This document shows positions 7,499 through 52,704 of a stretch of 64,000 nucleotides of DNA, in pieces; positions within the stretch are counted from its first letter, which is position 1; each line of letters starts with the position of its first letter. The notes under the pieces are model-generated. The model was not told where the DNA came from, made no database searches, and worked only from the letters and a program-made list of their open reading frames with translations. This stretch comes from Callorhinchus milii (Eukaryota), in NCBI RefSeq assembly GCF_018977255.1, contig NW_024704742.1, positions 50,470,001-50,534,000 of the forward strand, read 5' to 3'. The position numbers and the translations under genes were made by a program.

Positions 7499-7983
7499 TT
7501 ACAAGCTACAGGTTTGGGGAATTTCAGGCCTGAGATTCAGCAAAATGATAGATCACCAGAGGTTCAATTACTGCTTCCCTTCAGTTCAAGTAATGTTAAT
7601 CAGATACAGCAGTATGTTTGTAATATAGCTCATTCATTCTTTATCACTTCAAAGTACTCAACAAATCATCATTTACAGATCTGATGTACACTTTCTCAAC
7701 AATAAACTAGACTTTTGTTTGTATTTTCATAGAATCATAGATATTAATAACATAACTGATGGACATTTGGCCCATCAAGCCTATATTGGTGCAAATTCGT
7801 CCATTGGGATAAACTATTTTGAAACCACAAACACATGAAGGAAAAAGGAACAGATGGGGGTGAGCGAGGGGAATAGGAGTGGTGGGGGCCTGTGTGGAGT
7901 ATAGATATCATCACTAAGTACCTGAGCCAAATGGTTTGGTTCTGTGCCATATCACTATATGTATGCTAACATATAATATATAA

Positions 7984-14636: not shown

Positions 14637-15014
14637 TTAATAACAATAATACTTGCATTTAATATACCACCTTATCAGACTTCTTTTAGACTTCTCAAAG
14701 TGCATCACAGAATATACTGTAAAGTGAATTTATTGTATATTTTGTGGGCGAAACGTGGCAGCCAATTGCACACAGCAATGTCCCACAAGCAGTCGTGGAT
14801 TGAATGACCAAATTATTATTTTTTTTAAAAGGGATTATTATCCCCAGAAAAGCGATCCGCCAATTTGCAAGCAACCAGGTTCCTTAGCTACTGCTAGTTA
14901 CACAGAGGTGTGTGGATTAAGGAAACTTGCCCCACATATCGCTCTGCCTGGAAATCTAATCCAGGTCCTCTTGCTTGCCAGGCAAGTGCTCTAACCATGA
15001 AGCTACAGAACTCC
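14637..15014 (-). mobile_element. tRNA-derived SINE, long subfamily
   Basis: Full head-to-tail copy with an extra ~55-bp internal segment. Confidence 0.85.
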
Positions 15015-15239
15015 ATTAGACTAAGGTCGGGAAGAGCCACGGCTTGGGGACCCCAATGTGTGTGTTTGAAAATGTTGAACCAGCTAAAACTGCATAGCTT
15101 GCTATTGAAATGACTGTCTGGCAAGCTTTCAACTGATTGTCCAGCTATGACCACCCTGCCCATGACGGCTTTTACTTGCAGGGTTAATAGGAGCTGATTA
15201 GAAAGAATTTCTGCACCCAGTGACCAGTCTTTCCCTCCA

Positions 15240-17404: not shown

Positions 17405-17605
17405 AATAATAAAAATAATAATCCTTGCATTTGATATAGCGCCTTATCATGTCATTGAGACGTCTCCGGGATCCATTACTGTGAAGCGTTCTGAGATGCT
17501 GTCCGGTGTGTAAGGCGCTATATAAATCCAAGTTGTTATTGTTGTCTCAAAGCGCTTCACAAAATGTATAGTAAAGTGAATTGACTGTATATTTTGTGGG
17601 TGAAA
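17405..17605 (-). mobile_element. SINE 3' fragment with a nested opposite-strand L2 tail (17467-17543)
   Basis: Insert flanked by a gtctc duplication (17462-17466, 17544-17548). Confidence 0.8.
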
Positions 17606-18050: not shown

Positions 18051-19756
18051 ACTTAAGGCCTTTGTAAATCAAATGGCCACTGCAGTTCTTAACCTTAAGA
18101 TTTTCCTGTTGTAACATCCATTCTTCCAGCAACTAACTATGCTTGTGTTTTGAGCTACCAAAACAAGTTTGTGATGGCACTGTGATAATGGTGATAAAAT
18201 CGTCTACCTACTGTGAATCAGAAGGCCAAAATGACAGTCATGACAATGTTAGCGAGTAATTAGATCAATAACATGTTAAATCTGTCTTCACACAGTTTTT
18301 TCAGCCTGTGTCAAATCACTGACGCATTAAGGACTTTAATTAGGATTCTTTCAGATCTTGGCTTCCTGGCTTTATTCGTATTTGAATAAACATCTGCAGG
18401 CAACACGTTAGGAGTTCAGACAGTGAGTTAAACCCTGTCCCTAATTTCTATGGATTCTCTACTTTTATCTAAAGGAGAGTGTCATTTTTTTTACTTGTTT
18501 TAAAAAAGGTGCCTCAATAAAAAAAATTAAGTGAAGGAAAATGAATTTACAATTTACTTTGAAGGAACAGGGTGGAGAATTGAATTATCTTGTAACTGCA
18601 CTAAATTGTAGTTGAATGCATTTCTAAAACTATGCAGTAACTCCAATAATGAGGTGACAACTGTTGACTTTTTGTTTTGATCAGCTGGCTGTGTGAAACA
18701 TGCAGAAACCCATCACTATGCTTCAGAGTATGCAAATCAAGATTTCCACATATCCCAGCTACACATGGAAATCCCAGAGATAGATTGTTGGATGGAATGC
18801 GCACTCTCTCCCTGGAAGGATGCATCCTGCTTACCTAATTCTGGAAAGCATTAGGCGCAGGTTGGCAAGAGCCAAAGCTTGTGGATGCCAGAGTGTCTGT
18901 TGGGGTAACTGCTGGAGTCTAACCAGCTAAAGTCGCATTGCTTGCCATTGACATTGCTGTCCGGCAAGCTTTCAAGGTAGTTAACATGGGCTGCACTCCA
19001 ATTAGGGATGTTTGAAGTTCCAGCCCTAAGTGTTAATTGGGCATCAGCAACCGGTTAATGAAGCAGCACCAATATTCAGCCGGGTGCTAAAGAGAGGGGG
19101 GAGAATCTGGAGAAGACGACTATAAAAAGCAATAGCTCCCTTACCAAAATAAAGCTTTTTTTTGTTGCTAAAACCCTTGGTGCTAGTTTGTTTTCTGGGT
19201 GCAACCCCTACCCTTCAACACCAATCAACTCTTATTCCAAAAGGCAAAATACTCTTATTTTTCTTGAAACAAGTACTGACATCATAATGCTGCCAGTGAG
19301 ACCTCAACCTTTGAGAAATTGATTCCCCTGAACATACAGAAATAGTTTCCATAAAAGTTTGTTATCTTTCAGTATTTTGAAAGAAAATCTTGTCTTATTT
19401 TGCAGTTGAATTCACTTTGTAGTCTCTTCTCTATTTATTATCTGCAAAACTGTTCAATCAGTCCTACAGGCAATAATTTATTACACAGCTTATCACTTGC
19501 ATGTGAAAGTTCCTTGTGGCAATGTTGCTTTATTGTTTTACGAACAGAAGAACTGTGAGTATTGTGAATAATGTTCATTTAACAACAACAACGATATTAC
19601 ATTTGTAATGCGCCTTTCATGTCAAGTGGATAATTTCAAATACATTTATTTTCATACCATTTCATGTCAAAATCTACTTATTACTATAGAATTCTTAATC
19701 CATCTTCCCCCATCATTTTTGTGTAATGTTTCCCATTTTATATTATGAGCTGCAGT

Positions 19757-22300
19757 ATTGCAGAGGTAGTGGGGAACAAGGCCATGGAGGGCTTTGAAAG
19801 TGAGGACCAGGATCTTGAACTGTATCCTGAGTGTGGTGGGAAGCCAGTGGAGTCGGGCGAGGATAGGGGTGATAGTGTTGGGAAGCTTAAAAATAAGAGG
19901 GTCAAACAAGACTCCAAGGATCTGGACTGTCTTAGTAAGGTAGAGGAAACTCAGCTGTGGAAACTTGGCTCTCATCCAGGACTTGATGTCTGTCAGACAT
20001 TCTGTCAGGACAGCATGGTTCTGGAGTCGAGGGTGGAGGCAGAGAGTAGAGTTGGGTGTCATCCGCATACATGTGGAAGTTGACCCCATGTCTGTGGATG
20101 ATGTCACCAAGAGGGAGCATATAGATATTGAAGAGGAGGGGACCAAGGACAGAGCCCTGAGGAACGCCACACGAGACGGTGCAGGAGCGAGAGGAGAAAA
20201 CGTTTGTGGAGATGAAGTGGAGACGGTGTGAGAGCTAGGATCTGATCCATTCAAGGACAGAACCATGGTGGTTGAGGTGAGAGGAGAGGAGGAGGTTAGA
20301 TTGGTCAACGCTATTGAATGCAGGAGAGGTCAAGAAGGATGAGGAGGCAGAGGAAGCCCTGGTCGCAGATGGACAGAATGTCATTTGTAACTTTGACCAG
20401 GACTGTTTCTGTGCTGTGGGCAGCACAGAAACCCGATTGGAGGGGTTCGTAAAGGGATTGGTGGGAGAGGAAGGAGCGAAGCTGGGAAGCAACGACTCGT
20501 TTCGGGACATTGGACACGAAAGGAAGGTTGGAGATGGGATAATAATTTGAGAGCAGGGATGAGTTCAGGGAGGATTTTTTTAAGGATAGGAGTTAGGATG
20601 GCCGTTTTTAAAAGGGTAGAAACAGTACGAGTGGACAGAAAAAGGTTTATGATGCCTGTGAGTAGGGGGGCAAGGAAGTGGAGCTGAGAGGTAAGGAGGG
20701 GTAGGGATGGGGTCAAGGGTGCAGGTGGTTGGTTTCATGTGGGTTATAGTAGTGGTGAAAGAGGAGGGGGAGACATGTTTGAAGTTGTGGAGGGAGGGAT
20801 GGGTAGGGGCCAGGGTGTGAGGGAGAGATGTGGAGCGGTTAATAATCGGAAGGGCAGAGGTAGCTGAGTGGATCCCCTCAACTTTAGTTTCGAGGAATTC
20901 CAGCATCGCCTCGCAGTTGGCTTTGGAGGAGAGGATGTTGGAAGCGTGAGTGGGTGGGCGGGGGAGCCGGATGGTGATGGAGAAAAGGAGCCTGGGGTTG
21001 TCCTTGGCTTCGAAGATTGTCTTGGAGCAGAAGGACGATTTAGCGAAGGCGATGGCGGAGCGATAAGTTTTGACAAGGTCCAGCCAGATCTGCCAATGCA
21101 CTGTTAAGTTACATTTGAGCCAGGTGCATTTGGTGGTGCACATCTGTGCCTTGAGGGAGCGGAGGTGGCTGATGTACCAGGGTGACTTCAGTGAGTAGGA
21201 GGCGTTTCGGGAAGTGAGGGGAGCAAGGACATCGAGACTGGTGGAGAGGGAGTTGTGGAGGAGAGTGACCGAGGAGGCTAGGTCATTGTGGGAGGAAGCC
21301 CAGAAGGGGAGGAGTTCAGATGACTCCAAGGCAGCGGAAAGGGAAAGGGGGAGATTTTTTTCCAGGGGCGGTAGGAGATGGAGGTGGTTTAGGTGGTGGT
21401 GGGAAGAGTGTTTGAGGAGTTAAGGGAGGTGAAGTAATGATTCGAGATCGCTTTGTTGGTGATGGTGAGGTCCAAGACGCTGAGGTTATAATATAATAAT
21501 AATAATAATAATAATAATCCTTGCATTTGATATAGCGCTTTTCACGTCAGGAGGACATCCCAAAGCGCTTCACAGAACACACTGTAAAGTGAATTGACTG
21601 TATATTTGTGGGCGAACGCGGCAGCCAATTGCGCACAGCAATGTCCCACAAACAGTCGTAGATTGAAAATGACCAATTTAATTATTGTTTTTTTTTTTGG
21701 AGGGATTATTATTAGGCTCTGTGTGGAGTAAGGAAACTTGCCCAAGGTTTCGCCCTCTGCCTGGAATTGAACTCAGGTCTCTCACTTGCAAAGCGAGTGC
21801 TCTAACCACTGAGCTACAGGACTCCACAAAGGTTCCGAGTAATCACCAGGTCAAGCAGTTGGCCATGGACGTGGGTGGCAGAGTGGATGTGGAGGAGAGG
21901 TTCTGAGAGGAGAAGTCCTCAGAGATAGAGCAGTGCAGGTTGAAGTCGCCTAGGATGAGGAGGCTTTCAGAGCAGAGGGAGAGGGAAGATAGGAGTGTGG
22001 AGATGTCCAAGAGGAAGGTGGGGAAGTGTTTGGGGGGATGATAAACAAGGAGGATTTTGAGGGAAAGGTTAGAGGGGTGATAAAGAGTAAGGTGCTCAAA
22101 GGAGGGGAAGGCTCCAGAGGAGTAAGGGGATAGGCCGAGCGGGGATCAGGAGAGGAAAGCCACACCGCCACCACAGGTGGTGTGGCCTCTGTTAGGGGGA
22201 AGGTGTCACCTGGGGCCCAGGTTTCTGTGAGGGCAAGAATGTCGATGTTTGGATGGTGAACGTTTTGCAGGAAAGGGAGCAGACATTTTGTAGGCCAATG
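19757..22300 (-). mobile_element. Decayed L2 LINE ORF2 (endonuclease through RT), interrupted by a SINE
   Basis: IDILALTETW (endonuclease), linker ORF 20580-21329, [30 protein letters not shown]. Confidence 0.92.
21488..21829 (-). mobile_element. tRNA-Ala-like SINE, short subfamily, intact, inserted in L2 with 5-bp TSD aggtt
   Basis: Head GTGGAGTCCTGTAGCTCAGTGGTTAGAGCACTCGCTTTGCAAGTGAG; (ATT)n tail; aggtt at 21483-21487 and 21830-21834. Confidence 0.93.
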
Positions 22301-27139: not shown

Positions 27140-27330
27140 CTGACAATATACAACCTGTTCTCTCATGAACTCTATCCAACCCACTGACTATATACAATCT
27201 GCCTTCTCATGGACTATCCACCCACTGATGATACACAATCGACCCTCTCATGGACAATCCATCCCACTCGTTTTAATATAATCTATTCTCTCAATGGACT
27301 CCATCAAATCCACTGATTATATACAAACCA
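27140..27330 (+). repeat. Degenerate minisatellite, ~42-bp unit x ~4.5
   Basis: Repeating ccactgactatatacaatctg..tctcatggactatccac-like unit. Confidence 0.8.
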
Positions 27331-27617: not shown

Positions 27618-27700
27618 TTAATAATAATAATAATAATCCTTGCATTTGATATAGCGCCTTTCACGTCTTCTAGACGTCCCAAAGCGCTTCACAGAATATA
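27618..27700 (-). mobile_element. Isolated SINE 3' tail (5'-truncated)
   Basis: (aat)n ccttgcatttgatatagcgcctttcacgtcttctagacgtcccaaagcgcttcacag. Confidence 0.85.
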
Positions 27701-27749
27701 ATGTTTGCCACTGAACTGGATGTAAAACACATCTTCTGTCCTGGTATAG

Positions 27750-28064
27750 TAATATAATAATAGTCCTTGCATTTAATGTAGTGCTTTTCACATCTTCTCG
27801 ACATCTCAAAGCGCTTCACAGAATAGACTGTAAAGTGAATTGACTGTATATTTGTGGGCGAACGCGGCAGCCAATTGCGCACAGCAATGTCCCACAAACA
27901 GTCGTGGATTGAAAATGACCAATTTATTATTGTTTTTTTTGGAGGGATTATTATTAGGTGTGTGGAGTAAGGAAACGTGCCCAAGGTTTCGCCCTGCCTG
28001 GAATTGAACCCAGGTCTCTCACTTGCAAAGCGAGTGCTCTAACCACTGAGCTACAGGACTCCAC
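27750..28064 (-). mobile_element. tRNA-Ala-like SINE, short subfamily, intact, 63 nt upstream of exon 6
   Basis: Near-identical to 21488-21829. Confidence 0.93.
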
Positions 28065-28127
28065 TTATTCTTATTCATCACTTATTCTTATTCCTCACTT
28101 AAAATACTTCATCCCTTTATTTTACAG

Positions 28128-28265
28128 ATGGCTACACAACCGATGATATTCAGTTCTATTGGAGCGGTGGTAAATATGCAGTCACAGGAGTAGAAAAGAT
28201 TGAATTGCCACAGTTCGACATAGTTGATCACCAGATGATTTCAAAACTAGTGGTTTTTGCCACAG
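28128..28265 (+). CDS. gabrb1: GABA-A receptor beta subunit, exon 6 (138 bp; [47 protein letters not shown])
   Basis: ttttacag| acceptor, |gtaaac donor; phase fits exons 5 and 7; loop B/F/C sequence of beta subunits; not in the ORF track. Confidence 0.95.
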
Positions 28266-29269
28266 GTAAACCATTTAATAAGAAATTCAGACTACGTCAC
28301 TTCTATCAATGAATTTTGCGTATGATTGTTGTACACTAATAGGTATCATAAACTTAAGTAGATTATGTCAGACCGTTGCCTAAATATATTTAGAGCCCAT
28401 TAACATTGAGATACAGTCTAATCTCATTAGGAATTGTAATGACAACTTCTTGTTATAACAAAGCTTTTCCACTGTCTCAGTTTCCCATTAACATCTGTCA
28501 AGAAACTCAAGCCTCTATAAGATGAGCCAATGATAAGAATTGCTTAATTGATTCCCTTACATTTGTTAAATGAAGTCTTGACTGTATTCCAAGAATCTCA
28601 TGCTTTCTTATTGAGTCTCATTAGGCCTTTAATTTGTTCCTGGAATTTTGAACAAAGTTGGAATATTCACATGTGAATTCTTGAATTGAATTTGACGCAT
28701 ATATTATTATTATTGATCTTTTGGTCAACAAAGATTAGTAATTATATCCAGAGTAAATCTTTACAAATAGTCTGTCAGAAATCAACATTGCTTTTGGTAT
28801 CTTTGAATTTTGGTCTTATAATATTGATAACAGAATCCAACAGTTCCATTCAAGTTGTAAAAGCTGTGTGCCTACGACACTGAAATTTGCTGTAGGGTTC
28901 CTGTAAAGGCCAACAGGGCAAAGGTATCTCCTGGTGAAGACTGGCATTCAGGCCGCAGTCACAGATTCAAATCCTCGCCTATTCCTTTAACATTCAGAGA
29001 CATTACCCCAAGTTAAGGGCATTATATAAAGCAAGATGTTATTGTTGTTGCTAATCAGCCTAACTCAATTTGTTTGACATTTGGGGCAGTACGATTGTCT
29101 TCAGCACCAGGAACAGGAATGGGAAAAATTATGCTTCACTTTCCAAACTGTTAAACAGAGATCACTGCATGTAGGTGTGTGTGTTTGAATGTTGGGTAAG
29201 ATAGGATTGGACTCAGCTTTGATGGCCCATAGGCTAAGAGTGACAGACACAGTCTTCTAATAGCTCACA

Positions 29270-29800
29270 CAACAACATTGCATTTATGAAGCACCTTTCA
29301 CATTGGGAGGACGTCCAAAAACCTAGAAAGCCTGGCGAGTTTGCACCCAAGTTGGGGGTTCGATTCAAGGGGGGTTAGCCAAGATGCGGTAGGGAAGTTG
29401 GGAAAGATGGACCTTGAAGGAGGCAAGGCAAGGAGGAGGAACTCCACAATGGAGTTCCAGAACAGGGGCAGAGAGGCTGGAAGGCCAATTGCCATTGGTA
29501 GGGCAGTTAGTGGAGACGTGAAGCAGGCCAACCAGCACTCGCTGAGGAGGAGGTGGGTTGATTTTACAAGATTAAAGACGTAGATGGTGTAAGACTGGGA
29601 GAGCTTTAAAAGTGAGGACAAGAATCTTGAACTTGGCGGATGGGGGAGCCAGTGGAACCGGGTGAAGATGGGAATGATAGGCTTGTGGAACCTGGTTCAG
29701 ACACAAGCTGCAGAGTTCTGGATGGTCTGCAGTTTATGTAGGAAGAATTGGGAAGAATTGGGAAGTCCGGCAAGCAGAGAGTTGGTTTAGACTAGCACAG
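29270..29800 (-). mobile_element. Degraded L2 3' fragment
   Basis: Tail plus ggggagccagtgg..gctgcagagttctggatggtctgcag motifs. Confidence 0.75.
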
Positions 29801-30079
29801 GAATAATGAGTACTTGACTAGAGGAAAGTCTTGGGGCATTATTCCAGTAGGAGTCTGCTATCTGCCAGAGAGGAAGAAGGCAGAATAAATTGGACGAGAA
29901 AATTAGTGGAGGTAAAAAGCAGTTGTAGGAAAGTATACCCAATCTCATCATGTAATTGATAAATTTCTTGGGACATGTTGATAAGATGGTCTGCCTTGCT
30001 CACTGAAAGCTTCAAGATAATAAATTTCCAAATCAAATCTGGCTCAGACGTGAAGAACAGCTAGTTTATTGAGTTAGCA

Positions 30080-30395
30080 ACAGGTGAATGGGGGCTATAT
30101 TCCAGCAAGTGTATAACAATTTAAATGGGATTGAAAAAATAAACCCAGATCGATACTTTAGGATGTAGCAAGACAGTACAAGAGGTCACAAGTTGAGAGT
30201 TGTAAAGGGCAATTTTGGGACAGATTCAATGAAGTTTCACTTTACTCAGAGGGTAATCAAAGACTGGAAAGGTGGTTGAGGCCAGGACACTGGACTCATT
30301 TAGCTGTGATGGTTGGTGAGGGGGCAGGGTGTGTGTTCAAGAAAAATGAGATTGGATGGGCCAAAGGGCCTTCTTCATCCAAGTCAATCTTATGA
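30080..30395 (+). mobile_element. Degraded CR1 3' fragment
   Basis: acaagaggtcacaag..ttcactttactcagagggtaat..ggatgggccaaagggccttc. Confidence 0.65.
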
Positions 30396-31089
30396 TGTCA
30401 ATAACTTCTGGAGAAGAGGAAGAAAAACATTTAACAAACAATAGAAACTGATAGCTTAAACCAAACACTGTATAATATATTTTATCCTCCTCTCAAATAC
30501 TTCTATTTCAGCCTGTTAGAGCTAACATAGTTGGATATGGTTTCACTGAAAAAAATTGAGCTTATTTCATTATCAGGTACAGTACAGATTCTTAGGTAAG
30601 TTTACTGACTTGACAGGTGAGCATATGTTATTCTCTGCTGATCAGTAAATTTACTGACAGTCAGCGAATCACCTCTGTATCAATTTTAAAACTCACACTT
30701 TATATTAGTGTTAACTTATTTGATGTAATGCTACGAGCAGACATGATTATGATAAAGAACAGTGCAGAAAATAATGTCATGTATTGCTGGAGCTTTATAT
30801 TTTCTGCATCATGAAGCTGTGGACAATCAACTAGAACCTATTATAATGACTTATTATGTAAGTCATAATAATGAATGGAGGCTGAATTACACAAACATAG
30901 AATAGTTACAGGTTGGCCATCTCTGACTTGCTAATGTTTTAAAACATTATAAACAGTGTAGTTGTTCCATAGTTTTAAAGCACCATTTTCATTACACAAG
31001 TGTTTTATAATGTTATCAATGGTGATGGATTTTCAAGCAAAATGTCTTTTGATTATTAATGGTTTTTCCTTTATGCTGTACATAGGTGA

Positions 31090-31350
<261 letters not shown>

Positions 31351-31922
31351 TAACTACAATCACTAATCTGGAACTGTGCTACAGTCTGAGGATGTACATT
31401 ACCTACTGAGCTATGGATACCTGGAAATGAGTACAAAGCATCAATCTTGTGCGTATGTGTTTAAATATCAGGCGAAGTTCACATAATGATATCAGTCAAG
31501 ACTGACACTACAATGCGAAATAACAAATTCATCACCTGCAAGCCCAAATAGTTCCTCACATTTATCCTTTCAAACACTGTTTTTATCTGAAATATTTTGA
31601 TTATATCACCCCACTAACAAAAGTGACATAAACTTATATTGCATTCTTCCTGTGTGATAATGCCCAAACCAAAGGATTAACAATGTTTTAGTATAATTGG
31701 TGCATATTTATCAAATAGTAATGCACTGCTGACAACCAGAAAATAACAAATCTATATAATACTTTGTTATTGTCAGATGGTTATACTCTTAAAAAGAGAA
31801 GATGTGTCAGGATCAGGCAGTCACAGTTGGCTTCAGTAAGTGTGTGTGCTTTGTGTGATCAGCATGTTGCAGTGTAAAGATGTTCCTGTGTATTGATTCT
31901 GTTTTTTTTCAACATTTTACAG

Positions 31923-32173
31923 GAATCACAACTGTACTCACCATGACAACTATCAATACTCACCTCAGGGAAACTCTTCCGAAGATCCCCTATGTTAAGG
32001 CCATTGACATTTACTTGATGGGCTGCTTTGTCTTCGTATTCCTGGCTTTACTGGAGTACGCCTTTGTAAACTACATCTTCTTCGGGAGAGGGCCACAGCT
32101 TCAGAAGAAAGCAGCTGAGAAAGCTGCTCAGACCAACAATGAGAAGAGCAGGATGGAAACCAACAGAGTGCAG
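31923..32173 (+). CDS. gabrb1: GABA-A receptor beta subunit, exon 8 (251 bp; M2, M3, start of M3-M4 loop)
   Basis: ttttacag| ... CAG|gtacat; [55 protein letters not shown]...METNRVQ; AIDIYLM and terminal VQ are beta1-type. Confidence 0.95.
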
Positions 32174-32934
32174 GTACATATAGCAGTTGTAATAGTACCA
32201 GACAATAACCTCTTACGCAGAGGCCGGTGGAATGTGACCATCTATTTCACAAATGATTGTTGAATTATTCAAGCAGAGTCCATAAACTGCAGTAAAGGAG
32301 AATTAGATAGATGCTTGAAATGGAGGATTATTAAAGGACATGGGGAGTGCACAGGAGAGTGGTATTAAATGAAGTGACCCATGGGAAGGAAAACACCATC
32401 GTAGTTTTAATGGACTGAATGGCTTGTTTCTCTTCTGTAATATTCTGTGATACTGTGATCTCATGTTGTTTTCAAATGTTGTTTTCTTCTGTGTATTGTA
32501 AAGAGCAAAGAATCATTTGGTGGTGATTTTATTTGGTTCCTGAATTTAACAAATCATGTGGGGGTGACGGGATGAAATAGAATGATGTAAAGCTCAGGAG
32601 CATGTATAATGTTGATGTAAGTCACTATTTGAATTTGATCACAAGCACAGTACCAAAGAAAATAGATTTACAATTAATCGGTCTCAAGTGGAAGTAGTGT
32701 ATACGTAGAGAGATTCTCAGCAAAAGTAGTTTTAAATAAATATCTAACTACATTTATGTTTGTGCATAAAGTTGAATAGTTTAGAGGCAGGAATGGAATG
32801 AAATGAGCAAATATCCTATCAAACCCAATGTTTCCTGTGCTGTTAGGGTGGGGAGTATTATTGGTGGGGTGGATGATCAGTGGTACACATTTAACTAGAG
32901 AAAACATTTCAGATAGATGAATATGTAGCAGATT

Positions 32935-33340
32935 TGCTTTATATCACTCCCACCTCTGAATCAAGAGGTTGTAGATTCAAGTCCCAAAGTCAGGGCTTTA
33001 AATACATAGTCTAGGATAACACTCCAGTCCAGAGCTGGGGGAGCGCTGCTTTGTCAAAGGTGCCGTCCTTTAAATGAGATATTAAAGTGAGATCCTGTCT
33101 GCCTATCTAGACAGATATTAAAGATCCCATGGCACTACTCAAAAATAGCATTACTTAAAAAGAGAAGGGAGCTTTTTCCAATGCCCTAGCCAACAACCCC
33201 CCCCAGATGAAATTGATCATTTACTTCATAGCTGTTTGTGGGATTTTGCTGTGTGAAACTCGCTGCCACATATGCCTATGAAACAATTTAAGATGTTTCA
33301 ACAACATGACAAGGCATTACTTCAAATACAAAGATTATTA
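32935..33340 (+). mobile_element. Older DeuSINE (SacSINE1-like) copy
   Basis: cctctgaatcaagaggttgtagattcaagtcc..aagatcccatggcact..gctgtttgtgggattttgctgtg. Confidence 0.75.
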
Positions 33341-33572
33341 TAGAGATTATGATAGAGTCCCTGAAAGGGAAGAATATATACGGTCTATGAGAGGAGCAGG
33401 CTTTCACAGACCATATATTTTAGACATTTATAACAGCCTGATTCAAACTTGTTACTTCAAAGAGCAGTAAAGCATGAACATTTTCACTCTAAACCAACCT
33501 ACAATCTAACATTTATCATCTAAAACTGTTTACTTTCTTAATAGTTGCATAGACAAGAATGATCTTTCTTAA

Positions 33573-33790
33573 CTTATATTCCAATGGAGACTGCACTAAT
33601 AATGGATAGGATTACACTAGTTGAAGCAATCTCTGACATTGATGTCCGCTCCAAAGTCAAATAAATGTGGTTTAACTAAGGACAGTAATGTATTTAGTGA
33701 TATAAAAAATATGATATGTGATCAGAATCCACAACATTTTCTATCTGGTTCCTACCAGACTGAAACTATGGTAGACATCCAATTTATCTC
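33573..33790 (+). repeat. Direct repeat copy 1 (218 bp) flanking L2
   Basis: Aligns end to end with 34900-35113. Confidence 0.95.
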
Positions 33791-34899
33791 CTCTAGCCCT
33801 CGGACCATCTCGTGGCATTCCTCAGGGCTCTGTCCTGGGTCCCCTCCTCTTCAATATCTATATGCTCCCTCTCGGTGACATCGTCCGCTGACATGGGATC
33901 AACTTCCACATGTATGCGGATGACACCCAACTGTACCTCTCTTCCTCCACCCTTGACTCCAGGACCACTGCTGTGCTGACAGAATGTTTGTCAGACATCA
34001 AGTCCTGGATGAGAGTTAACTTTCTTCAGTTGAACGTCAACAAGACTGAGGCCCTCCTGATCGGCTCCCTTCAGCGCCTGCTCACCTCAGGCGCTGACAG
34101 CATCACCATCCATGGTTGCACACTCCACATTGTTAAGCCAGTCCAGAACCTTGGTGTTTTGTTTGACCCTCAACTATCCTTTCTACCCCAAATCTCTGCC
34201 ATAACCCGCTCTGCCTTCCCCACCTCCGCAACATCCTCGGCTCCGCCACTGTCTCACACCGCAAGCCGCCAAAACCCTCATATGTGCTTTCATTACATAG
34301 AGGCTCGACTGTGCAAACTCATTACTTGTCGGCCTCCCCAGTTCCTCCCTCAACAGCCTGCAGATCATCCAGAACTCTGCAGCCCATGTCCTCTCCCCCA
34401 CCAGACTCCATGACCCTATCACGCCCATCCTCGCCCAACTCCACTGGCTTCCCATCACACAGAGGATACAGTTCAAGATCCTGGTCCTCACCTTCAAAGC
34501 CTTCCACAGTCTTGCTCCCCCCTACCTCTCCAACCTCCTAACCCCCTACCAATCCTGTTCGCTCCCTCCGCTCAGCGGGCTCTGGCCTGCTTCATGTCCC
34601 CCGCCTTACTCGCCCCACTATTGGTGGGCGGGCCTTCCGCAACTCTGCACCCACCCTCTGAAACTCCATCTCGCAGTCCCTCCATCTCTCCCCCTCCCTT
34701 GCCACCTTCAAGACCCATCTCAAGACCCTCCTCTTCAATCGTGCTTTCGATCTCCCTGCTTCCCCCACCTGCCCTCCACCCTCCCCCACACCGACCCCTT
34801 AGCTCCAGTAACTCCGTCTGTTCCAGTGCCTTGGGAAGTCCTTCCAACATGAATGGCACTGTACAAATGTAGTTGTGTTGTTGTTGTTGTCGTTGTTAT
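33791..34899 (+). mobile_element. 5'-truncated L2 LINE (RT C-half to tail)
   Basis: ggcattcctcagggctctgtcctgggtccc, [12 protein letters not shown], (gtt)n tail. Confidence 0.93.
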
Positions 34900-35113
34900 C
34901 TTATATTCCAATGCAGATTGTACTAATAATGGATAGGATTACACTAACTGAAGCAATCTCTGACATTAATATCCACTCCAAAGTCAAATAAATGTGATTT
35001 AATTAAGGACAGTAATGTATTTAGTATAAAAAATGATATGTGATCAGAATCCACAACATTTTCTGTCTGGTTCCTAACCAGACTGAAACCATTGTAGACA
35101 TCCAATTTATCTC
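34900..35113 (+). repeat. Direct repeat copy 2 (214 bp) flanking L2
   Basis: Aligns end to end with 33573-33790. Confidence 0.95.
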
Positions 35114-35257
35114 AGTCTTTGTTTTGCTGCAGAGTAGTTCCTTTCATGTTAATTTTATTGTGTCCTGTTGGCTGAAAGATCTCCCTACTGAGCTACTTCG
35201 ATTCTTTTGTCTCATGTATCACTGAATTACTGTCTCAAATAACTTATACTTTGTATT

Positions 35258-35612
35258 TAAGGTTATGAATGGATTTGATAAGGTGGACATTAGTAGGTTG
35301 TTACTACTTATTGACGAGTCCAAAGCAAAGTGGCATAAATATAAGATAGCCAGCAGCAGATTTAAAGGGAATTTAGGGGGAACATTATGAAGAGGGTGGT
35401 GAGAATGGGGAAATCAAACCCAAATATTTGGATGAAGCAAAATGTATCAATGTATTTATGCGCAAACTTGTTGCATACATGAGGGAAAAGTTAATTGAAG
35501 AGTATGGGAAAGAGGATAAGGAAGATGGATGCTTGTGTGGAATAAAGGTCTTCACTGACTAGTTGAGACGGGTGGTCTGTTTCCATGCTACAATGTTTCA
35601 TCTAATTCTATG
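35258..35612 (+). mobile_element. Degraded CR1 3' fragment
   Basis: aaggttatgaatggatttgataaggtggac..agagggtggtgagaatgg..aattctatg. Confidence 0.7.
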
Positions 35613-38056
35613 TAAGTCAAAGGTAATGTAAAATAATATGTGTATATATATTTTGCAGTTCTCAATAATTTCTAATACAGCTACAGTGAAGACAAATGTT
35701 TTAAATCTGTATAATAGTGTTGCAGAGGCATACAATTGTTGTGATATTGCAATTGAGGGAATAGTATTCGTGGGTGAGCTGAACTGAGATGTAAAAGATT
35801 ATGGAGCTAGAGGCTAGAGATATTGAGCCGCAGAACTGGGAGACTGACTCACAAGATCACAAGATTGGTTCGGATGAAGGAAGCACATTGGCAGCGTCTG
35901 ATCTCATTCCTCCAGAATAGCCCTCCCGTCACAGCATCAAGCTATTGTTTAAATGAGTCCAATGTCCTAGCCTCAGCCACCCTTCCTGTCATTAATTACT
36001 CTCTAGAGAAAGAAAAACTTCATGATGTGCGTCCTGAAATTGCCCTTTGCAACTCTATACTTCTGTCCTCCTGTTCTACTGCCTATGTCCTATTGTTCTG
36101 AAAGTAGAAGGTCTGAAGAGAACACAGAGAAACAGAGATTGATAATTGAAGAGAAATGAGAGACTGAGAAGCAAACAGACAAAAAAAAGCAGAAAGAAAC
36201 AGTAAAATGTAGAAATAAAATGTAGAAAGAAAAATAAAGACAGTGAAGAAAGATATTTAGAAAATGGGATGCCTGACAAACAAGACTTTTTTGAAAATAA
36301 ATGTTTCAGAAAGAGATCAATTGAGCCTGCCAGCTTCTTAAACTTGAGTCGTTTTTAACTCACATTTCACCCAACAATTTTAAAAACTAGAATGTTGACT
36401 CATTACTTGAAGGCTTAGCATGTTTTTTTATCCTGTCAAAATTATTTGGGAATAATTTGTGACCGTGCTACTCCACTGAGTAATGATAATGTTCTAATTT
36501 ATTCAAATGCTTTTATATCATGTAAACAGCAGCAAAATGAATATTTGCTTGGAAAGATTTGAATTTATAATAGGGTTTAATTACAACAATAATAAGTTTG
36601 CTTTTATCTAGCAACTTTCACATCAGGAGGTATCTCAAAGTGCTTCACGCAATTGGGGGGTGGATGGGGTGGGAGAGGAAGGAAGGTGACCAAAAGCATG
36701 GTTGAAAAGATGGGTCTTAAAGTGGGCTTTGAAGGCAAAGGTAGAGGGCAAGGCAGAGGGACTCCAAAATGGACTTCCAGAGAGAAGGGGCAGAATGGTG
36801 TGAAAACACCAGTGGGGCGGATTAGTCAAAGATCATGAAGCAGACCGATGTCATACTTAAATAATGATATTCACGAACCAGATTTATTTCATTAATTGCA
36901 ACTTAATTAATTTTGGATTGAGAAATCTACAGCGTAATTTGTGAACAGTCTGAAAAAAAAGCCATTGCAAGTTAGACCTCAATATATTGGACAAAATTAG
37001 GAAACTAATAGACTGACGGAACAAATCCACATCCTCTAAGCAAATTACAAAAAAAATCTCCAAAAGTAAAATGGATTGGAACTAGCTGAATGCCAGTGAG
37101 CTGGTATGATGTATTTCTGCTTTTATTATTAAGAAATCCCATTAGATATTGTCATATAATAGACCCCAGTGTCAGTCAATGACCAAGTAACATGGAGATG
37201 GGGGTAAAATGTCCAATTAGGCGCCAACCAGTATTGTTAAGGGCCCGCAGTGTTGCAACAACAACAAATTACATTTGTACAGCGCCTTTCACGTCAGGAG
37301 GACTTCCCAAGTTTCATTCCCTGGGGTGATTCTGAAGTCCAGCAACTATTACCTTCAAGAAGAATGCCATAGTTACCATAGTGACTGTTACCCCATCAGC
37401 CAACTTACACCGCAAAAGTGATTTTTTTTCTCTCTTCCCTTTTAATCAAAAGCACTCCTGCAGTAAACAAAATATATGCTGGAATTATCATTCAGAGAGA
37501 TCAAAAAGATAAAGTATTTTTTAATATGATGATGTTCAAAAAGATGTCTCAGGCACACAATGGCAGTAGTTAAAGTGTCGAAAAATGGCTGTCGTATCAA
37601 AATTTAAACATAAAAATAAATACCAATGTCTACCTGCCTGCACATAAGTTTTTTTTTAAATTCTGTTACAAAGAATGTACAGCTCGAAAACAGACTGCTC
37701 AGCTCAACAAGTCGGTGCTGACTTTTGTTTTACTTTGTGATTCGTGATTGAATCAGAATCGTTAACAGTGTCAAATTAGCATAACTAAGTTGAATAACTC
37801 TGCTCTAGTTTCACGTAACTCAAAAGACTCTCTCACCGGGCACAAGCTCAGAAGCAGAAAATATATAATTGTACTGGTGGGGTGCCTTCTGCAGTTTAAA
37901 AGAGAGAACATAATATGAAAATCTTTTATGCGCACCATTATACCTTACTGAACCTCTGAGAACTGAACGCCTGAAACTTTGTCACGTCTATATCAAAAAG
38001 GATCTCAAGACATTAATAATAATAATAATAATATTACTTGCATTTGATATAACGCT

Positions 38057-38300
38057 TTGTGGAATCCTGTACCTTGCCTGGCAAGCGAGAGGAGCTGAGA
38101 TTTGATTCCTGAGCAGGGTGAAACGTTGGGCAAGTTTCTTTACTCCACGCGTTTCTGTTTACCTAGCAATAAGTGGGAACCCATGATTGGCGGATTGCTT
38201 TTCCAGAGATAATAATCTCTTCAAAAAAATAAACAAATGATAATTTGGTCACTCAATCCACGACTGTTTGTGGGACAATGCTGTGCACAATTGGCCATTA
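38057..38300 (+). mobile_element. tRNA-derived SINE, long subfamily, partial
   Basis: tgtggaatcctgta..gcaagcgagag..ttgggcaagtttc..ggcggattgcttttccag. Confidence 0.75.
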
Positions 38301-39269
38301 TATTACAGTAAATGCAAGTTGTTGTTTTGTTGTTATAAACTCTCAAAAGGGTGAGCATTCCAGAACAACACTCTTTGCTTTCACTCAACACTCAATTAAA
38401 AGAATCATATGATTTATTAAAATGCAGTAATCATTTGTGACTCAACTGTATAAAATAGTTGAGCTGAATTTGATATAACTTAAGGACATTCCAGGCCTCC
38501 AAGGGTTAGTTAAGTTAGTCTTTGGAAAGTGAAGAGATCCATAATACAGTATTGCACACACAGGTCATTCATGACGTAAGTGATGACACAGTGTAAGGTT
38601 TCATGCGTGATTTAAAACAACATCATGAACCGTAGAGAGTTCCTTTAAACCACCTCCAGAAACATTAATCACATCAAAATGACGTCTTAGTCAAAGTTTC
38701 AACTGTGACTAAGGGAAAATACTATATCATTAAAGGATTGTAATTGTAAAGGAGGTTGTATGAAAGAAACAGATATATGTTTTTGCCCTTATGGTTTCTG
38801 GTTGTCAATACTGCAGTGTTTCCTTTGAGCTACAGCCCTGTTTTACAGAGCAGATACACTGATCAGATTGTGCACTGACACATATGTGGCATTGTGGATG
38901 TTTGCTTGAAATCTGGCCATTTGAAAGTGTACAGAATAAATTCTGCACTGTATCCAAAATGCAATTATTCCCTGACTGGGTCTGTGTTTTGTAACCCTGT
39001 TAAAAAAAACATACATTTTATTTTTTAATCTTTTAATTTCCTATCCTGTATAAGTAAATGCAAGATTTTGTTGTATTGGAGATTTCTCAAACAAGCTTTT
39101 GTTCACAAATCTCGGTGAACATCTTATCACAAAGCCATAAATGGAGACCACTCGGGTGCTAAGGATTGTAAAGCAAATACGTACTAAAATGAAATCTTGC
39201 TTTTCAGTAAAAAACATCTCAATTCAGGACTTGATTGCATCAATCTGCTCCCTCTATCTCACAGAGCCA

Positions 39270-39990
39270 TTGTGAAACCTCAGTGTCTTGTTTAACCCTC
39301 AACTGTCCTTTAAGCTTTGCATGTGGCTCTCCCTTGCTCTCCTTTCCCTCACTTCCACAATCTTACTCACCTCTATCACTACCTCTTCCTCCAAGCTACC
39401 AAGACCCTTGTTCACACCTTCATCACATCAAGACAGACTATTCAAATGTCCTGCTCACTCTGCTCCACTTCCTCCCAACACAAGCTGCAGACCATCCAAA
39501 ACTCTGCAACTCATATCCTCTCACGCACCAGGCTCTATGAGCTTATCACCCTCAAACTTGCTCAGCTCCACTGACTCCTCATCCCCCAGCATATCAAATT
39601 CAAGGTCCTTGTCCTCATTTTTAAATCGCACCACAACCTTGTCCCCATCTACCATTGTGACCTCCTGCAACTTTACACCCATCCACTACCTCTGCTCAGT
39701 AAACACTGGCCTGCTTCATATCTCCCGCCCACCCTGATCCACCATCAGTGAGTGAGCTTTCAGTCCTTTTGCCACCATTCTCTGGAACGCCATCCTCGAG
39801 TTCCTCAGCCTCATCTCCTTCTTCCCCATTTTTAAGGTCTGCCTTAATAAAATCTTTCCTTTCAATTGCACTTTTGATCACCTTTCTAATCCCCCCACCA
39901 ACTTCCCCCACCCCTAGCTTGGGCTCCCAGCTGATTCCATAAAGTGCTTTGAGACATCCTCCTGACATGAAAAGTGCTGTGTAAGTGTAA
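39270..39990 (+). mobile_element. Degraded L2 3' fragment
   Basis: KTLVHTFITSR..KLQTIQNSATHILSRTR..LAQLH. Confidence 0.85.
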
Positions 39991-40897
39991 AAGTATTGAA
40001 GTTGTTCACCAAAAGGAGCAAGATTTTCCCTTGTACATGTTTCTGGGATGGTACTGTGTCCAAATTTATGTTTAAAGTAAATAGATTTGGCTTCTCGTCC
40101 ACCTATTTTGACATGATTAAAGTCAAGACTACTGGCTGGAGAATGCTTTGGGAAATGAACACTTCTGGCAACATTTGTTTCTACACAAGCAACTAAATTA
40201 TGTCAAAATTAAGATGCTTGTTTAACAAGTTTAAGCAAAGATGTGTGTGAGCTGAGTGTGTTGTGTCAGCAGCAGTCAAATTGGCATTGGCATTGGTTAC
40301 CATGGAGATATCCACTGCCTCATTAATCCAGCTCAACCAAAATGAAAAGGAATGTAAATGAGAGAAATCATCTATTCGTTTTAAGTACTTACTTTTGTAT
40401 CCTTATCTTTTATTCCCTTGGTTTCTTCTTCTTCTCCTTGGGTGGAGTGTGTGAGCCATAGACTTTTCCATGACCAATGTCAGTGCAACACCATGATTAC
40501 ATTACAGGAGGAGGCACTATGGCAGGAGAGAGAGCCAGCAAATCCATACATAAATGGAACACTGCAGTTTACAGGAACATGTTGAGTTGGATAGAGGAAG
40601 AAAAATAACAAAATAGCAAAAATAACAATAACCCTTGCATTTGCTGTCCAGAATAGTGAGACACCTTAAAGCCTTTCACAGCGTGTCTGTAAAGTGTGTG
40701 GACTATGTATTTATATGTAGGCATTTGTAAGTGAATTCGACGGCCAATTTGCACATCCAGACACAGCCATTATTGTAATTCCACAGTACCTGAAGCCCCA
40801 GTTGCTTTCTGCTTAATTACATAATGTCTGCCCTATGTTTGCAGGATTCAAAATAATGCCTAGCAAAATATATAACAGATATTTCCGTTCATAAACT

Positions 40898-40962
40898 CAT
40901 GATTGAATGGCGGGGCAGGCTCGAAGGACCGAATGGCCTACTCCTGCTCCTATATGTTATGT
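40898..40962 (+). mobile_element. Short CR1-type 3' tail
   Basis: gaatggcggggcaggctcgaaggaccgaatggcctactcctgctcctatatgttatg. Confidence 0.75.
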
Positions 40963-41149
40963 TAAACAGCTGTAGGAATTTATTTGTTTGTGTACTTTCC
41001 TCGGAGCACACAGGAACAGCCAAGGGAAATAATCAGGGACGTAGATGGGAAATGAAGAGGAAGCATATGTAGTAAACAAAGTCAGATCATGATCTGAAAA
41101 TGCTGCACCAGTTTCCTCTCTCAAAGATCAGATGCTTCACTGTGGCAAA

Positions 41150-41166
41150 TGCGCCATCTAGTGTCT
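41150..41166 (-). promoter_or_regulatory. Candidate CTCF site (GACACTAGATGGCGCA)
   Basis: Close match to the CTCF core CCACYAGRKGGCGC in non-repeat intron 8 DNA. Confidence 0.45.
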
Positions 41167-44100
41167 AGGTACAAACAGGTTAAATTCATTTTGTGAGAAC
41201 AAGTGATAGGGTTAGTTCCAATTGCGGTTTAAATTGGAACTTATGACCCTCTGGTTAGGAATTCAATTCGCCCTCCTGTAACAGACCGCCTGACTGAATG
41301 GAAATGTTTATTAAAACAGTGAGAAGAATATATGGTTGTGCGAATTGGCCTTTACTCCATAGACTACATGCAGAGAAACTAAATTCCAAACCCAAATCAG
41401 GCTGGTTTAAATTAATTTGGGAAGTAACCCAAATTTAATGTATTTTCATGCTTCTGATATAGGTAGATTTGTTTCTTTAAAATAAAATGTGCAGAGGATT
41501 AAAAGGAGCTTTGCATTTTACCTATTGCACCACAAGGTTCCTTGTTGTTATTGAGGTTGCTGGGTGTGTGCTGCCACCCAGTCTGTTTAAATATAATTGG
41601 AGTAAACAAAATTGCAGTTGTGCAGCATTTGTTTCTCTGGTGGTTCAGTTGTGCATCAAAGTTTGCAAAGTTTCACATGTATTTCCTTGTTACCAGACAG
41701 GCCACTGAGACTGGCACATGGTAGTAATAATAATAATAACATTCAGGGTGAGAATGAGAATCTTTGTGAATGCCTAGATTTTACACATCCCAAAGTCAAA
41801 ACCTTCAAATACAGCAGAACACTCAGGGTTAAGGTTAACTCTAACACTCAGTCCTAATGTAGGTATTGTTGAATCACCCGTGAGAGGATCCACACCAAAT
41901 CCCTCATGATCCCCCTTTCAGGTGACTGATTGTGGAAGTTTGATGATTTCTGGTTTGCTTAGGAAGCAAAAAGCCGAATCTGAACCCAGTAAAAGTGGAA
42001 CTTCTCCAGTTCAGATATGCCTGGTCTGTGGGTCAGATTTGCCCTTGTCCCTCATGGTGTAGCAGAGATGTAGTTAGAGAATCACAAAATACATTCATGA
42101 AATGGGTACAGTGTTTTATTGTTAATATGAATGAATAATGGACATGATGGTTATTTGCCGGCATTATTCATGAAAATACTCTAAAAGCGCTGAAGGGAAT
42201 AATGCATTAAGCATCTTAGTTTGGTTGATTAGTCAGATCTTGGGGCAGTGAAAAAGATTTAGGATTCCTTGCTTCCTAACTCCATTTAAGCGACTCTTAT
42301 TTTTAGAACCTTTCCCCGTTTTTTTTCAGAGCTGTTTTGATGGTGGGATATATGGAGTGTTGTTGTCTGCCAGATAGATGCTCCATGTATGATTATGTTA
42401 GCTAGTGTTGAAAAGTCATATGAAGGGACATCACAGGCAGAGCTTTGCAGAATGCATGTTCTATGCCAAGTACCACCCGGAGCCGTTGTTTTTAATAGTT
42501 CCACCTGGAGCAGTTGTTAAAAAGTCAGAATGCATCAGAGGTTACACAAGCCTTTTACTGAATGAAGCTGCTGGCATATTTTGGGAGCACAACAAGCAGG
42601 GTTTTATTAAGTGGAGGCTTCAGGCAGCCCGCTGATAATACACGATTGGAGCTGCAAGTTACTTGGTGCGAAGCTGTTACTATTTCTGCAAATATTTGAT
42701 TTAAATATAAAGGTTAGGCTTTAGGAATTTGCCTTTGCTTGGGAGCCACCATCTGGAATCATGCTCTAGCCAAACTACTGTAAGGGAACTGAACTCAAAA
42801 GTCTCGAAATAGGTCAGTTCAACATAGATACGGCTGACGCCCCCACACCTACGGCAACTTTGGCTTCAACATAATCCAGTCACTAATGGGTATAATTGAA
42901 TAAGATGTGACAAGAGCTTATTTAGGACCTTGACAACTTTCCATAGCAAAGAGAAATTGCATCAGTCTCTCCTAAAGTTTTGAAAAATTAAAAGTGTTCA
43001 TATTCGTTGGCCTTTCCCAATGTAACTAGAATATGTTAAGGGGAGCATTTAAATATGTGCATGGTACATGCATTACTTTCTGTTCTTAGCGGGCTCCTGC
43101 CATTAAACCGTTTTTTGTGTTTTCCATTTGGCATTTCATGGTCAGAGAGAGTCATCATATATTATACTTAGCCATATAAAGATCTCAGGAAATGATTCTA
43201 TTAGAAGCAGAACCTCTTCATACCAATGAAGAATTGTGTTACTTTAGTGAAAGCTGATTTCTGCTCACAATAAAATATAATCCTCCAACACTCTCACTTT
43301 CTCCCTGTCACCATGGCTACTCAATATGAAGAGCATTCAATAATGAAGGTCATGAATGCTGAATTAAATCTATTTTTTTCTCTCAAATAACACGTTGCGT
43401 CTCAACAGATAAAATACATTTACAATCTGTCAGTTGATAATCAAAGATGTTAACTGGGCATGTGAGAGACAGCTCATGCAGGTTTAGTTTTATCAGAAAA
43501 CTGAACCAAGTAATGGTTTTCAATCTGAAGCTTTCAATCCAATAATAATGCCTTCAACCACTTCCACTGAATCCTTGAATTAATTATTGCCAACATACAG
43601 TTAAGAAATGGCTTATCAGTTCGTGATAATAATTAATGGCAATGGTAATTAAAGTCAATTTTAACTGTAAGTTTCATACAGTTTTATAATTAGTAAAGGC
43701 AATAAAAAGATGAGGAATATCTTAAGGAATACCACAAATTCTGCCTGTATCTATTTTATGTGCATTCAGATAAGTTCTATATGACTTACTTAATTTATCT
43801 GGAAGTATATATCTGAACAAGATGTTTTGTTCTACATTGATATAAAAGATTCAGTCGCTCACAACAACAACTCTTATATAACATCCTTCACATAGGTAGC
43901 ATCTCGGAGCTAACATTTGATAAACTATTAGATATTATTACTTTTAGCTGGCATGATCTCACACAAGCTTGATTTGGTTCATACATCTAGCTGTATGAAC
44001 ACAGAATAAACACAGACAAATATATATATGCTGTGTTTAGACTGCTGGGAGCAAAGCTGTCTTTATGTTCTGATTACTAAATTCTGGGGGTGGTTTTTAA

Positions 44101-45377: not shown

Positions 45378-45775
45378 ATGCTGTCTTAACTCTGGCTCTG
45401 GAATTCCCTTCCTCACTCCCTTTGCCTCGCTCCCCCTCTTCCTATTTTCAGGTCTCGGTGAAGACCTTTCTCTTCGACTGCGCCTTTGGTCACCTTCCTC
45501 CCCCTCCTCTTGGCTCGGCCTCGGGATCCGTTACTGTGAAGCGCTCTGAGACACCATCTGGCGTGGAGGGCGCTATATAAATCCAAGTTGTTGTTGTTAA
45601 CTGTTAAGATTGAGCGTCATTGTGGGACAATTCTTAAGTTCAAGCTTAATTTGGAAACCAGTTTTCCACACTCCTTAAAAAGAACCACTGGTTTCCAAAT
45701 TAAGACTGAATTTAAGAATTTTCTGCAATTCTCTGCAATCCTAAAATTTAAGACAAAATTATCTTTTCAGCTAAG
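45378..45775. repeat. Palindromic element copy 2, left arm interrupted by L2 3' fragment (45392-45596, TSD ttaact)
   Basis: aattcttaagttcaagcttaatttggaaaccag pairs with ctggtttccaaattaagactgaatttaagaatt. Confidence 0.78.
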
Positions 45776-51925: not shown

Positions 51926-52356
51926 GGTGGTTTGTTGAGTAGTACAGAAGGTTGAGAGGGAATCTAAAAAAATTCAAAATTATGACTGATTTTAATGGGA
52001 TAAATAGTTTACTTCTTTTGAATCCTGAGTCAGTGATGAGATGGCATAAATTGAGGATTATCAGCAGTGGAAAAAATGGGAACTTTTTATGTTAAAATAT
52101 GGAATGCATCACCTTGCATGTTTCTAGAAGCCAAGTCAATATCAGAATTTAAAAGCGAATTGGCTAAATACTACAAATTGGTCATTCGATTCCTGGTTAT
52201 TTGTGGGACAGTCTACGACTTAAGTACTCCTCACTGTTTGAGATACTCATTTTGTGAAGTGCACCACTTTCTGCAATCGCTGGTGACATTAACTGCAGGC
52301 ATTGTACAGGTCAATGCATCTCCCGGTTTCTCAAAATATCTCTCTTTTTATTGCAG

Positions 52357-52704
52357 GTTGATGCCCACGGAAATATTATCCTGACAACACTCGAAATTAG
52401 GAATGAAGTCACCGCTTCAGAGGTGCTGACAAGTATCAGTGATCCAAGAGGGACCATGTATTCTTATGACAGTACCAACATCCAGTATCGAAGGCCAACT
52501 GCAGGCAGAGATGGCTACGGTAGAAGCACGTTGGAAAGGCATATGGTTCAGAAGAAAGGACGTTTACGGAGACGGGCGTCACAACTTAAAGTCAAAATCC
52601 CAGATCTGACTGACGTGAACGCCATAGACCGGTGGTCACGGGTAGTCTTTCCTATTACATTTGGTTTTTTTAACTTAGTGTACTGGCTCTATTATGTCCA
52701 CTAA
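52357..52704 (+). CDS. gabrb1: GABA-A receptor beta subunit, last coding exon 9 (M3-M4 loop with RRRASQLK phospho-motif, M4, stop)
   Basis: ctttttattgcag| acceptor; [39 protein letters not shown]...[12 protein letters not shown]; closest to recalled beta1 (ends YYVH; beta2/3 end YYVN). Confidence 0.93.

Follow-up and report, generated by a model that had tools for sequence, protein, structure and literature searches.

What process left two similar copies of a ~220-bp stretch of intron on either side of a truncated L2 element? An earlier note on the 64-kb window analyzed here (the whole stretch of 64,000 nucleotides) read this arrangement as a target-site duplication (TSD) of exceptional length, arising through distal second-strand cleavage or repair-associated duplication. 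We established the geometry, junctions, uniqueness and rough ages of the locus. The long-TSD reading is supported by the exact abutment of repeat and element, by microhomology at the 5′ and 3′ junctions, by the single-copy state of the duplicated unit and by matching ages, and it fits every test that we ran. We put at about 85% the probability that a single L2 retrotransposition event made the duplication, its 5′ end having been joined ~220 nt from the first nick.

A direct repeat adjoining both ends of an L2 element

Global alignment of the left copy (33573-33790, + strand, 218 nt) with the right copy (34900-35113, + strand, 214 nt) gave 200 matches and 13 substitutions in 213 columns, with 11 of the 13 being transitions, and three gap blocks of 3, 2 and 1 nt. 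These figures reproduce the earlier estimate, made by eye, of ~13 substitutions, ~3 small indels and ~93% identity from end to end. The copies thus differ at p = 0.061 (95% CI 0.033-0.102; K2P 0.065), and self-blastn of the 64-kb window recovered the pair at E ~1e-84, with no third copy of the unit in the window. The right limit of the repeat falls exactly at 33790/35113, where the L2 element and the right flank, respectively, begin. The left limit is less sharp because of similarity to the tail: extension to 33569/34896 (222/218 nt) costs one mismatch, and local alignment reaches back to 33563/34890, the furthest that the left copy could extend. With this blurring at the left boundary, the proposed exact abutment on the truncated 5′ end and the (GTT)n tail holds, and the repeat adjoins both ends of the element exactly. 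In its left copy, the duplicated target is unique, AT-rich intron DNA (34% GC). Among the four same-strand two-copy pairs lying less than 8 kb apart in the window, only this one has a gap wholly filled by a repeat.

Another of the direct matches in the window, between 15014-15132 and 18849-18975 (two copies, 73% identity, 3.7 kb apart), was considered as a further TSD and rejected, as it brackets no element; it is probably an old low-copy repeat.

The segment between the copies (33791-34899, + strand, 1109 nt) comprises the C-terminal part of a reverse transcriptase (RT) region, the rest of ORF2, a 3′ UTR and a tail. Its ORF2 remnant is broken by stops and frameshifts, and the RT remnant matches RVT_1 with E 2.8e-6 and 27.6 bits, a partial domain scoring below the gathering cut-off of 29.6. 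The segment shares 75% identity along 1100 nt with the L2 at 7983-9076, which has a 620-aa frame matching RVT_1 at 6e-35, and 88% with 19951-20193; the segment's 3′ end is 76-86% like other tails in the window. A (GTT)n-type tail lies at 34873-34897 (+ strand). On the RVT_1 remnant, the paralogue identity and the short-tandem-repeat tail, we identify 33791-34899 as a 5′-truncated, decayed L2-type LINE copy, as had been proposed. The L2 label itself, as against CR1, we take from general features of the clade together with PMC5499810 rather than from an RT phylogeny. Elsewhere in the window, the L2 copy at 8090-9952 (- strand) keeps the 620-aa open frame with the RT domain, and a long one at 19560-22150 (- strand) has an endonuclease-domain trace at 21846-22145, is interrupted by a SINE and is rearranged in its 3′ half.

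Both junctions carry microhomology. At the 5′ junction, TCTC (33787-33790, + strand) is common to the target end and the L2 family sequence just upstream of the truncation point. Of the two paralogues that span the point, the closer one matches over 4 nt and the other over 2 nt. At the 3′ junction, the last bases of the tail overlap the target, with TT or TTA in common. The last nine tail bases match the nine before the left copy (33563-33571) at seven positions, a level equaled or bettered by 0.18% of sites in 28000-42000, for a stretch that was picked post hoc. Because of this overlap of tail and target, the length of the duplication is 218-228 bp. Taken on its own, 2-4 nt of microhomology is a weak sign. 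For the zebrafish element ZfL2-2, microhomology is reported at ~50% of 5′ junctions and ~80% of 3′ junctions (PMC2666801), and the junctions here, with microhomology at both ends, correspond to the commonest types in that report.

Uniqueness of the unit and age of the insertion

A run search with 30000-38500 listed 19 sequencing runs; the fraction of its words present is 0.76-0.87 in four runs from the window's organism (A) and 0.05-0.06 in organisms B and C. Four of the 19 were mapped on 32300-36800 at 80% likeness, namely X10 and X13 (A; two samples of the window's species from one study), X6 (B) and X9 (C). Contigs from X10 and X13 match 33214-33740 with no differences and also agree exactly over the end of the right copy and the adjoining flank, and an X13 contig (34824-35062) spans the junction between tail and right copy, again with no differences. 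Among the contigs listed for X10 and X13, none lies over the 5′ junction at 33790/33791. In both runs, bins restricted to unit and flank, or to the end of the tail, have depths of 7.5-14.5, like those of the unique flanks; over the element the depth is 1.2e5-5.1e5, marking L2 as highly abundant in this genome. Depth does not amount to a copy number, and copies less than 80% alike would be missed by this mapping; the four-order gap in depth between unit and L2 leaves no room for a dispersed family more than 80% identical. With no third copy in the window, flank-level depth in both same-species runs, exact contigs and the bridge across the tail junction, the unit is not a dispersed repeat, nor is it an assembly error. 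Downstream, 35169-35621 is a moderately repeated element, with depth of 180-420 in X10; it is deep in B and C too, and no second copy was noted in the window.

The relatives bear on when the duplication arose. Contigs of B and C over unique intron differ from the window at 82/622 and 60/519 positions, respectively (12-13%), and the divergence between the two repeat copies (13/213) is lower than the flank divergence to B (Fisher P = 0.004) and to C (P = 0.029). As the copies differ by 6% and the flanks by 12-13%, the event is probably lineage-specific, the duplication postdating the split from B and C. Under equal rates and no gene conversion, it would be about half as old as these splits, and relatives would therefore be expected to carry an empty site. 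Gene conversion between the copies could make the repeat look younger; clustering of differences along the repeat, as expected of conversion patches, was not significant (KS P = 0.16). Among the joints listed, neither B nor C has a contig joining across the locus (2397 further joints stand outside that list). In the C run, the left flank and left copy have a depth of 57-76, which falls to 3 across 34867-35017 and is 89 across 35018-35168. This pattern would fit one copy without the L2, though we do not count it as evidence, and two joints in the tail repeat were dropped. The B run gives almost no cover over either copy (0-9).

A second age comes from the element itself. Compared with two paralogues over the first 240 columns, rather than with a family consensus, the L2 has private changes at 15/240 columns, and outside CpG at 9/206 (4.4%, CI 2.0-8.1%). 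The latter figure is an upper bound because it includes subfamily differences. Loose-end consensuses over the L2, mapped at 80% likeness, agreed only at 0.4-0.7 and were left out of the dating. The proposed comparison of repeat divergence with L2 divergence thus sets ~3% per copy beside at most 4.4%; this is a weak test, by which the two ages appear compatible. The earlier note also held that copy divergence dates the insertion, and this can indeed be done without a consensus. If the elephant-shark substitution rate of 1.0-1.1e-3 per site per Myr given in PMC5499810 applies, the insertion would be about 30 Myr old (15-55); a six-fold slower rate is cited and rejected in the same source.

Origin of the duplication

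These observations are best explained by one round of target-primed reverse transcription with an unusual ending. As in the established reaction, the L2 endonuclease would nick the bottom strand at ~33563-33572, and the freed 3′ end would pair with the UU of the (GUU)n tail of the RNA and prime reverse transcription. Copying evidently stopped after ~1.1 kb, inside the RT region. Judged by the junction sequence, attachment of the cDNA end used a microhomology of 2-4 nt (TCTC) lying 218-228 nt downstream of the first nick, a distance that is usually 5-6 nt, and fill-in would then have duplicated the stretch between nick and joining point. The distant joining may have come about in two ways. We prefer, at somewhat better than even odds, a distant second nick followed by strand displacement; only a little less probable is that the cDNA end switched onto the downstream target and copied back to the nick. 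Distal second-strand cleavage and repair-type copying yield the same product and are not separable by sequence here. After either, the two copies would have drifted ~6% apart, following the split from B and C.

The same final layout would result had a tandem duplication come first, or formed at a double-strand break, and the L2 then landed or been captured at the seam as endonuclease-independent filler, and the want of a B or C contig across the locus among the joints listed leaves room for such an order of events. Even if an L2 hits the duplicated region, however, landing exactly at the seam without a short TSD is a coincidence of roughly one in hundreds. Copies captured at breaks are also usually without tails, whereas this tail is complete and shares bases with the target, as happens when priming is normal, and the ages of repeat and L2 overlap. 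We consider this account unlikely.

Less probable still is a pseudo-TSD, in which two independent L2 insertions in the same orientation, ~220 nt apart on different haplotypes, underwent unequal crossover to leave a chimeric L2. L2 copies are extremely numerous here (depth 1e5-5e5), and for the long TSDs of HERV-K a recombination model of a related kind has been put forward (PMC5488345). Such a crossover would nevertheless require two co-segregating insertions within 220 nt, and there is no L2 remnant at the outer ends of the repeat. Over its 5′ part and over its middle, the L2 matches one and the same paralogue (87.8% and 87.6% identity), with no sign of a chimera in those two parts. That the unit is instead a dispersed repeat, an LTR or an assembly artefact, possibilities that the earlier note had itself raised against its reading, or a transduced flank, is scarcely credible and has been largely refuted. 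Copies below the 80% mapping level could have escaped such a test, but the depth of the unit equals that of unique flanks in both same-species runs, the contigs listed over each copy match exactly, and the two copies, alone of their kind in the window, are set apart by their 13 substitutions. Nor did the index of scanned DNA yield a sequence resembling the unit. The single-event retrotransposition reading is the one that we carry forward.

Long duplications in the window and in known systems

To place this insertion among its neighbors, we took 60 nt starting 12 nt past each of 40 L2/SINE tail matches in the window and sought its recurrence within 7 kb upstream, an approach that misses short duplications and mixes families and ages. 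The 3′ flank recurs upstream for three of the 40 tails (scores 29-40, against 8-15 for the remaining 37). Of these three, two tails abut another SINE and were set aside, leaving a long TSD at 1/40 tails (CI 0.06-13%). A programmed long-TSD family of the R9 or Dualen type would show such TSDs at all or most of its insertions, unlike the tails of this window. Of the short TSDs that the earlier note assigned to neighboring insertions, GTCTC and TTAACT were located as described, and AGGTT could not be placed confidently at the two ends of any one element. GTCTC (17462/17544) flanks a 77-bp L2-tail micro-insertion inside a SINE (17462-17548), a clean control for the usual footprint. TTAACT (45386/45597) flanks an L2 3′ fragment of ~205 bp (45386-45602), and its TT overlaps the tail. 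With neighbors of related families carrying TSDs of 5-6 bp, the long TSD here looks like a rare outcome.

The closest published parallel is ZfL2-2, itself of the L2 clade, for which Suzuki et al. (2009, PMC2666801) report one 1228-bp TSD in 25 wild-type insertions in DT40 cells, and Tables S4/S5 of that paper may list more. Our locus resembles its long-TSD class (>20 bp) in clade, 5′ truncation, microhomology at the junctions and long direct duplication of the target, and its frequency of 1/25 insertions can be set beside 1/40 tails here. The ZfL2-2 events, in contrast, come from an engineered zebrafish element in chicken cells, whereas the present one is a germ-line insertion with a duplication of ~220 bp that has diverged by 6%. 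In cultured human cells, L1 TSDs of 217, 242, 275 and 277 bp, and up to several kb, are reported by Servant et al. (PMC5223499). There, TSDs longer than 100 bp account for no more than 10% of events in HeLa cells and for the majority in cells deficient in nucleotide excision repair (NER), and are ascribed to a distal nick. The 217-277 bp cases are near our locus in size, and they differ from it in belonging to the L1 clade, in their poly(A) tail, in coming mostly from NER-deficient cells and in being de novo events.

Long target duplications are also known from genomes. The LINE Dualen-4b has duplications with a median of 900 bp at over half of its insertions (PMC9977147), and R9 has a TSD fixed at 126 bp (as cited in PMC9977147). 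Both are, like our case, non-LTR elements with long flanking duplications in vivo; in those two the long TSD characterizes the family, whereas for the L2 here it appears to be a rare outcome. HERV-K (HML-2) loci with TSDs of 111-450 bp (PMC5488345) are likewise genomic, inherited and of similar size, but belong to an integrase-based LTR element with different chemistry. The literature searched, which takes in few of the subscription journals, yielded no survey of long L2 TSDs in genomes. Long TSDs being already published for the L2 clade and for L1, the locus is a new and well-preserved case of a known rare class. The term "exceptionally long" is too strong, given similar and far longer TSDs in PMC2666801 and PMC5223499, but the rarity claimed for long TSDs agrees with the single case among 40 tails.

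As an intronic fossil, one such locus matters little by itself. It suggests that long TSDs, known for L2 and L1 from cultured cells, are also transmitted through the germ line, and persist despite the expectation, voiced by the authors of PMC5223499, that large-TSD L1 events are short-lived because of recombination between the TSDs. Surveys of TSDs often limit their length, as did a primate survey (5-30 bp) that called for study of longer ones (PMC2912911), and a genome-wide count would therefore be a cheap test of how LINE second ends are joined. For this genome, which evolves slowly, a broader proposition would be that a few percent of the L2/SINE insertions carry long TSDs that have survived tens of Myr, with a length mode near 200 bp. 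One case among 40 tails is compatible with this and shows no length mode; we hold it improbable. If it were true, a mode of ~200 bp would correspond to the nucleosome repeat or to Okazaki-fragment size, LINE 5′ ends would often be attached at a pre-existing replication nick, and L2 would add local duplications to a vertebrate germ line at a measurable level that has so far gone uncounted.

The host intron

PF02932 matches in frames at 31090-31350, 31859-32260 and 52258-52701, all on the + strand. The second of these marks an upstream exon (approximately 31922-32170, + strand; 4.9e-26) predicted to encode M2-M3 of a GABA-A receptor beta subunit and the first part of its cytoplasmic loop, and the third marks the last coding exon (M4; 52356-52704, + strand; 1.4e-10). 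Since these + strand exons lie on either side, the L2 and its repeat sit inside the last intron of the gene (~20 kb), in sense orientation. The best PDB relatives of the upstream exon are GABA-A beta2, beta3 and beta1; by homology, the host gene is a GABA-A receptor beta subunit, with beta1, 2 and 3 not separated by this search. We scanned 143 of the 347 non-repeat frames of at least 45 aa, together with four frames at L2 copies, against Pfam. Among the scanned non-repeat frames flanking the unit, none matched apart from the host exons, nor did the frame running through the left copy. Rfam reported six tRNA-like SINE heads in the window, none inside the duplicated unit. Nothing points to a function, and the structure is most probably a neutral relic within the intron.

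At the end of the upstream host exon (~32165-32176), two possible GT donors lie 6 nt apart and in frame, a pairing by which alternative splicing of the cytoplasmic loop is possible. Upstream of both this exon and the L2, a tandem repeat with a 41-bp period occupies 27140-27326 of the window, with ~3 copies and a further partial copy, and a tRNA-headed SINE at 27621-28066 has a doubled 3′ tail and abuts an L2-type tail pointing in the opposite direction.
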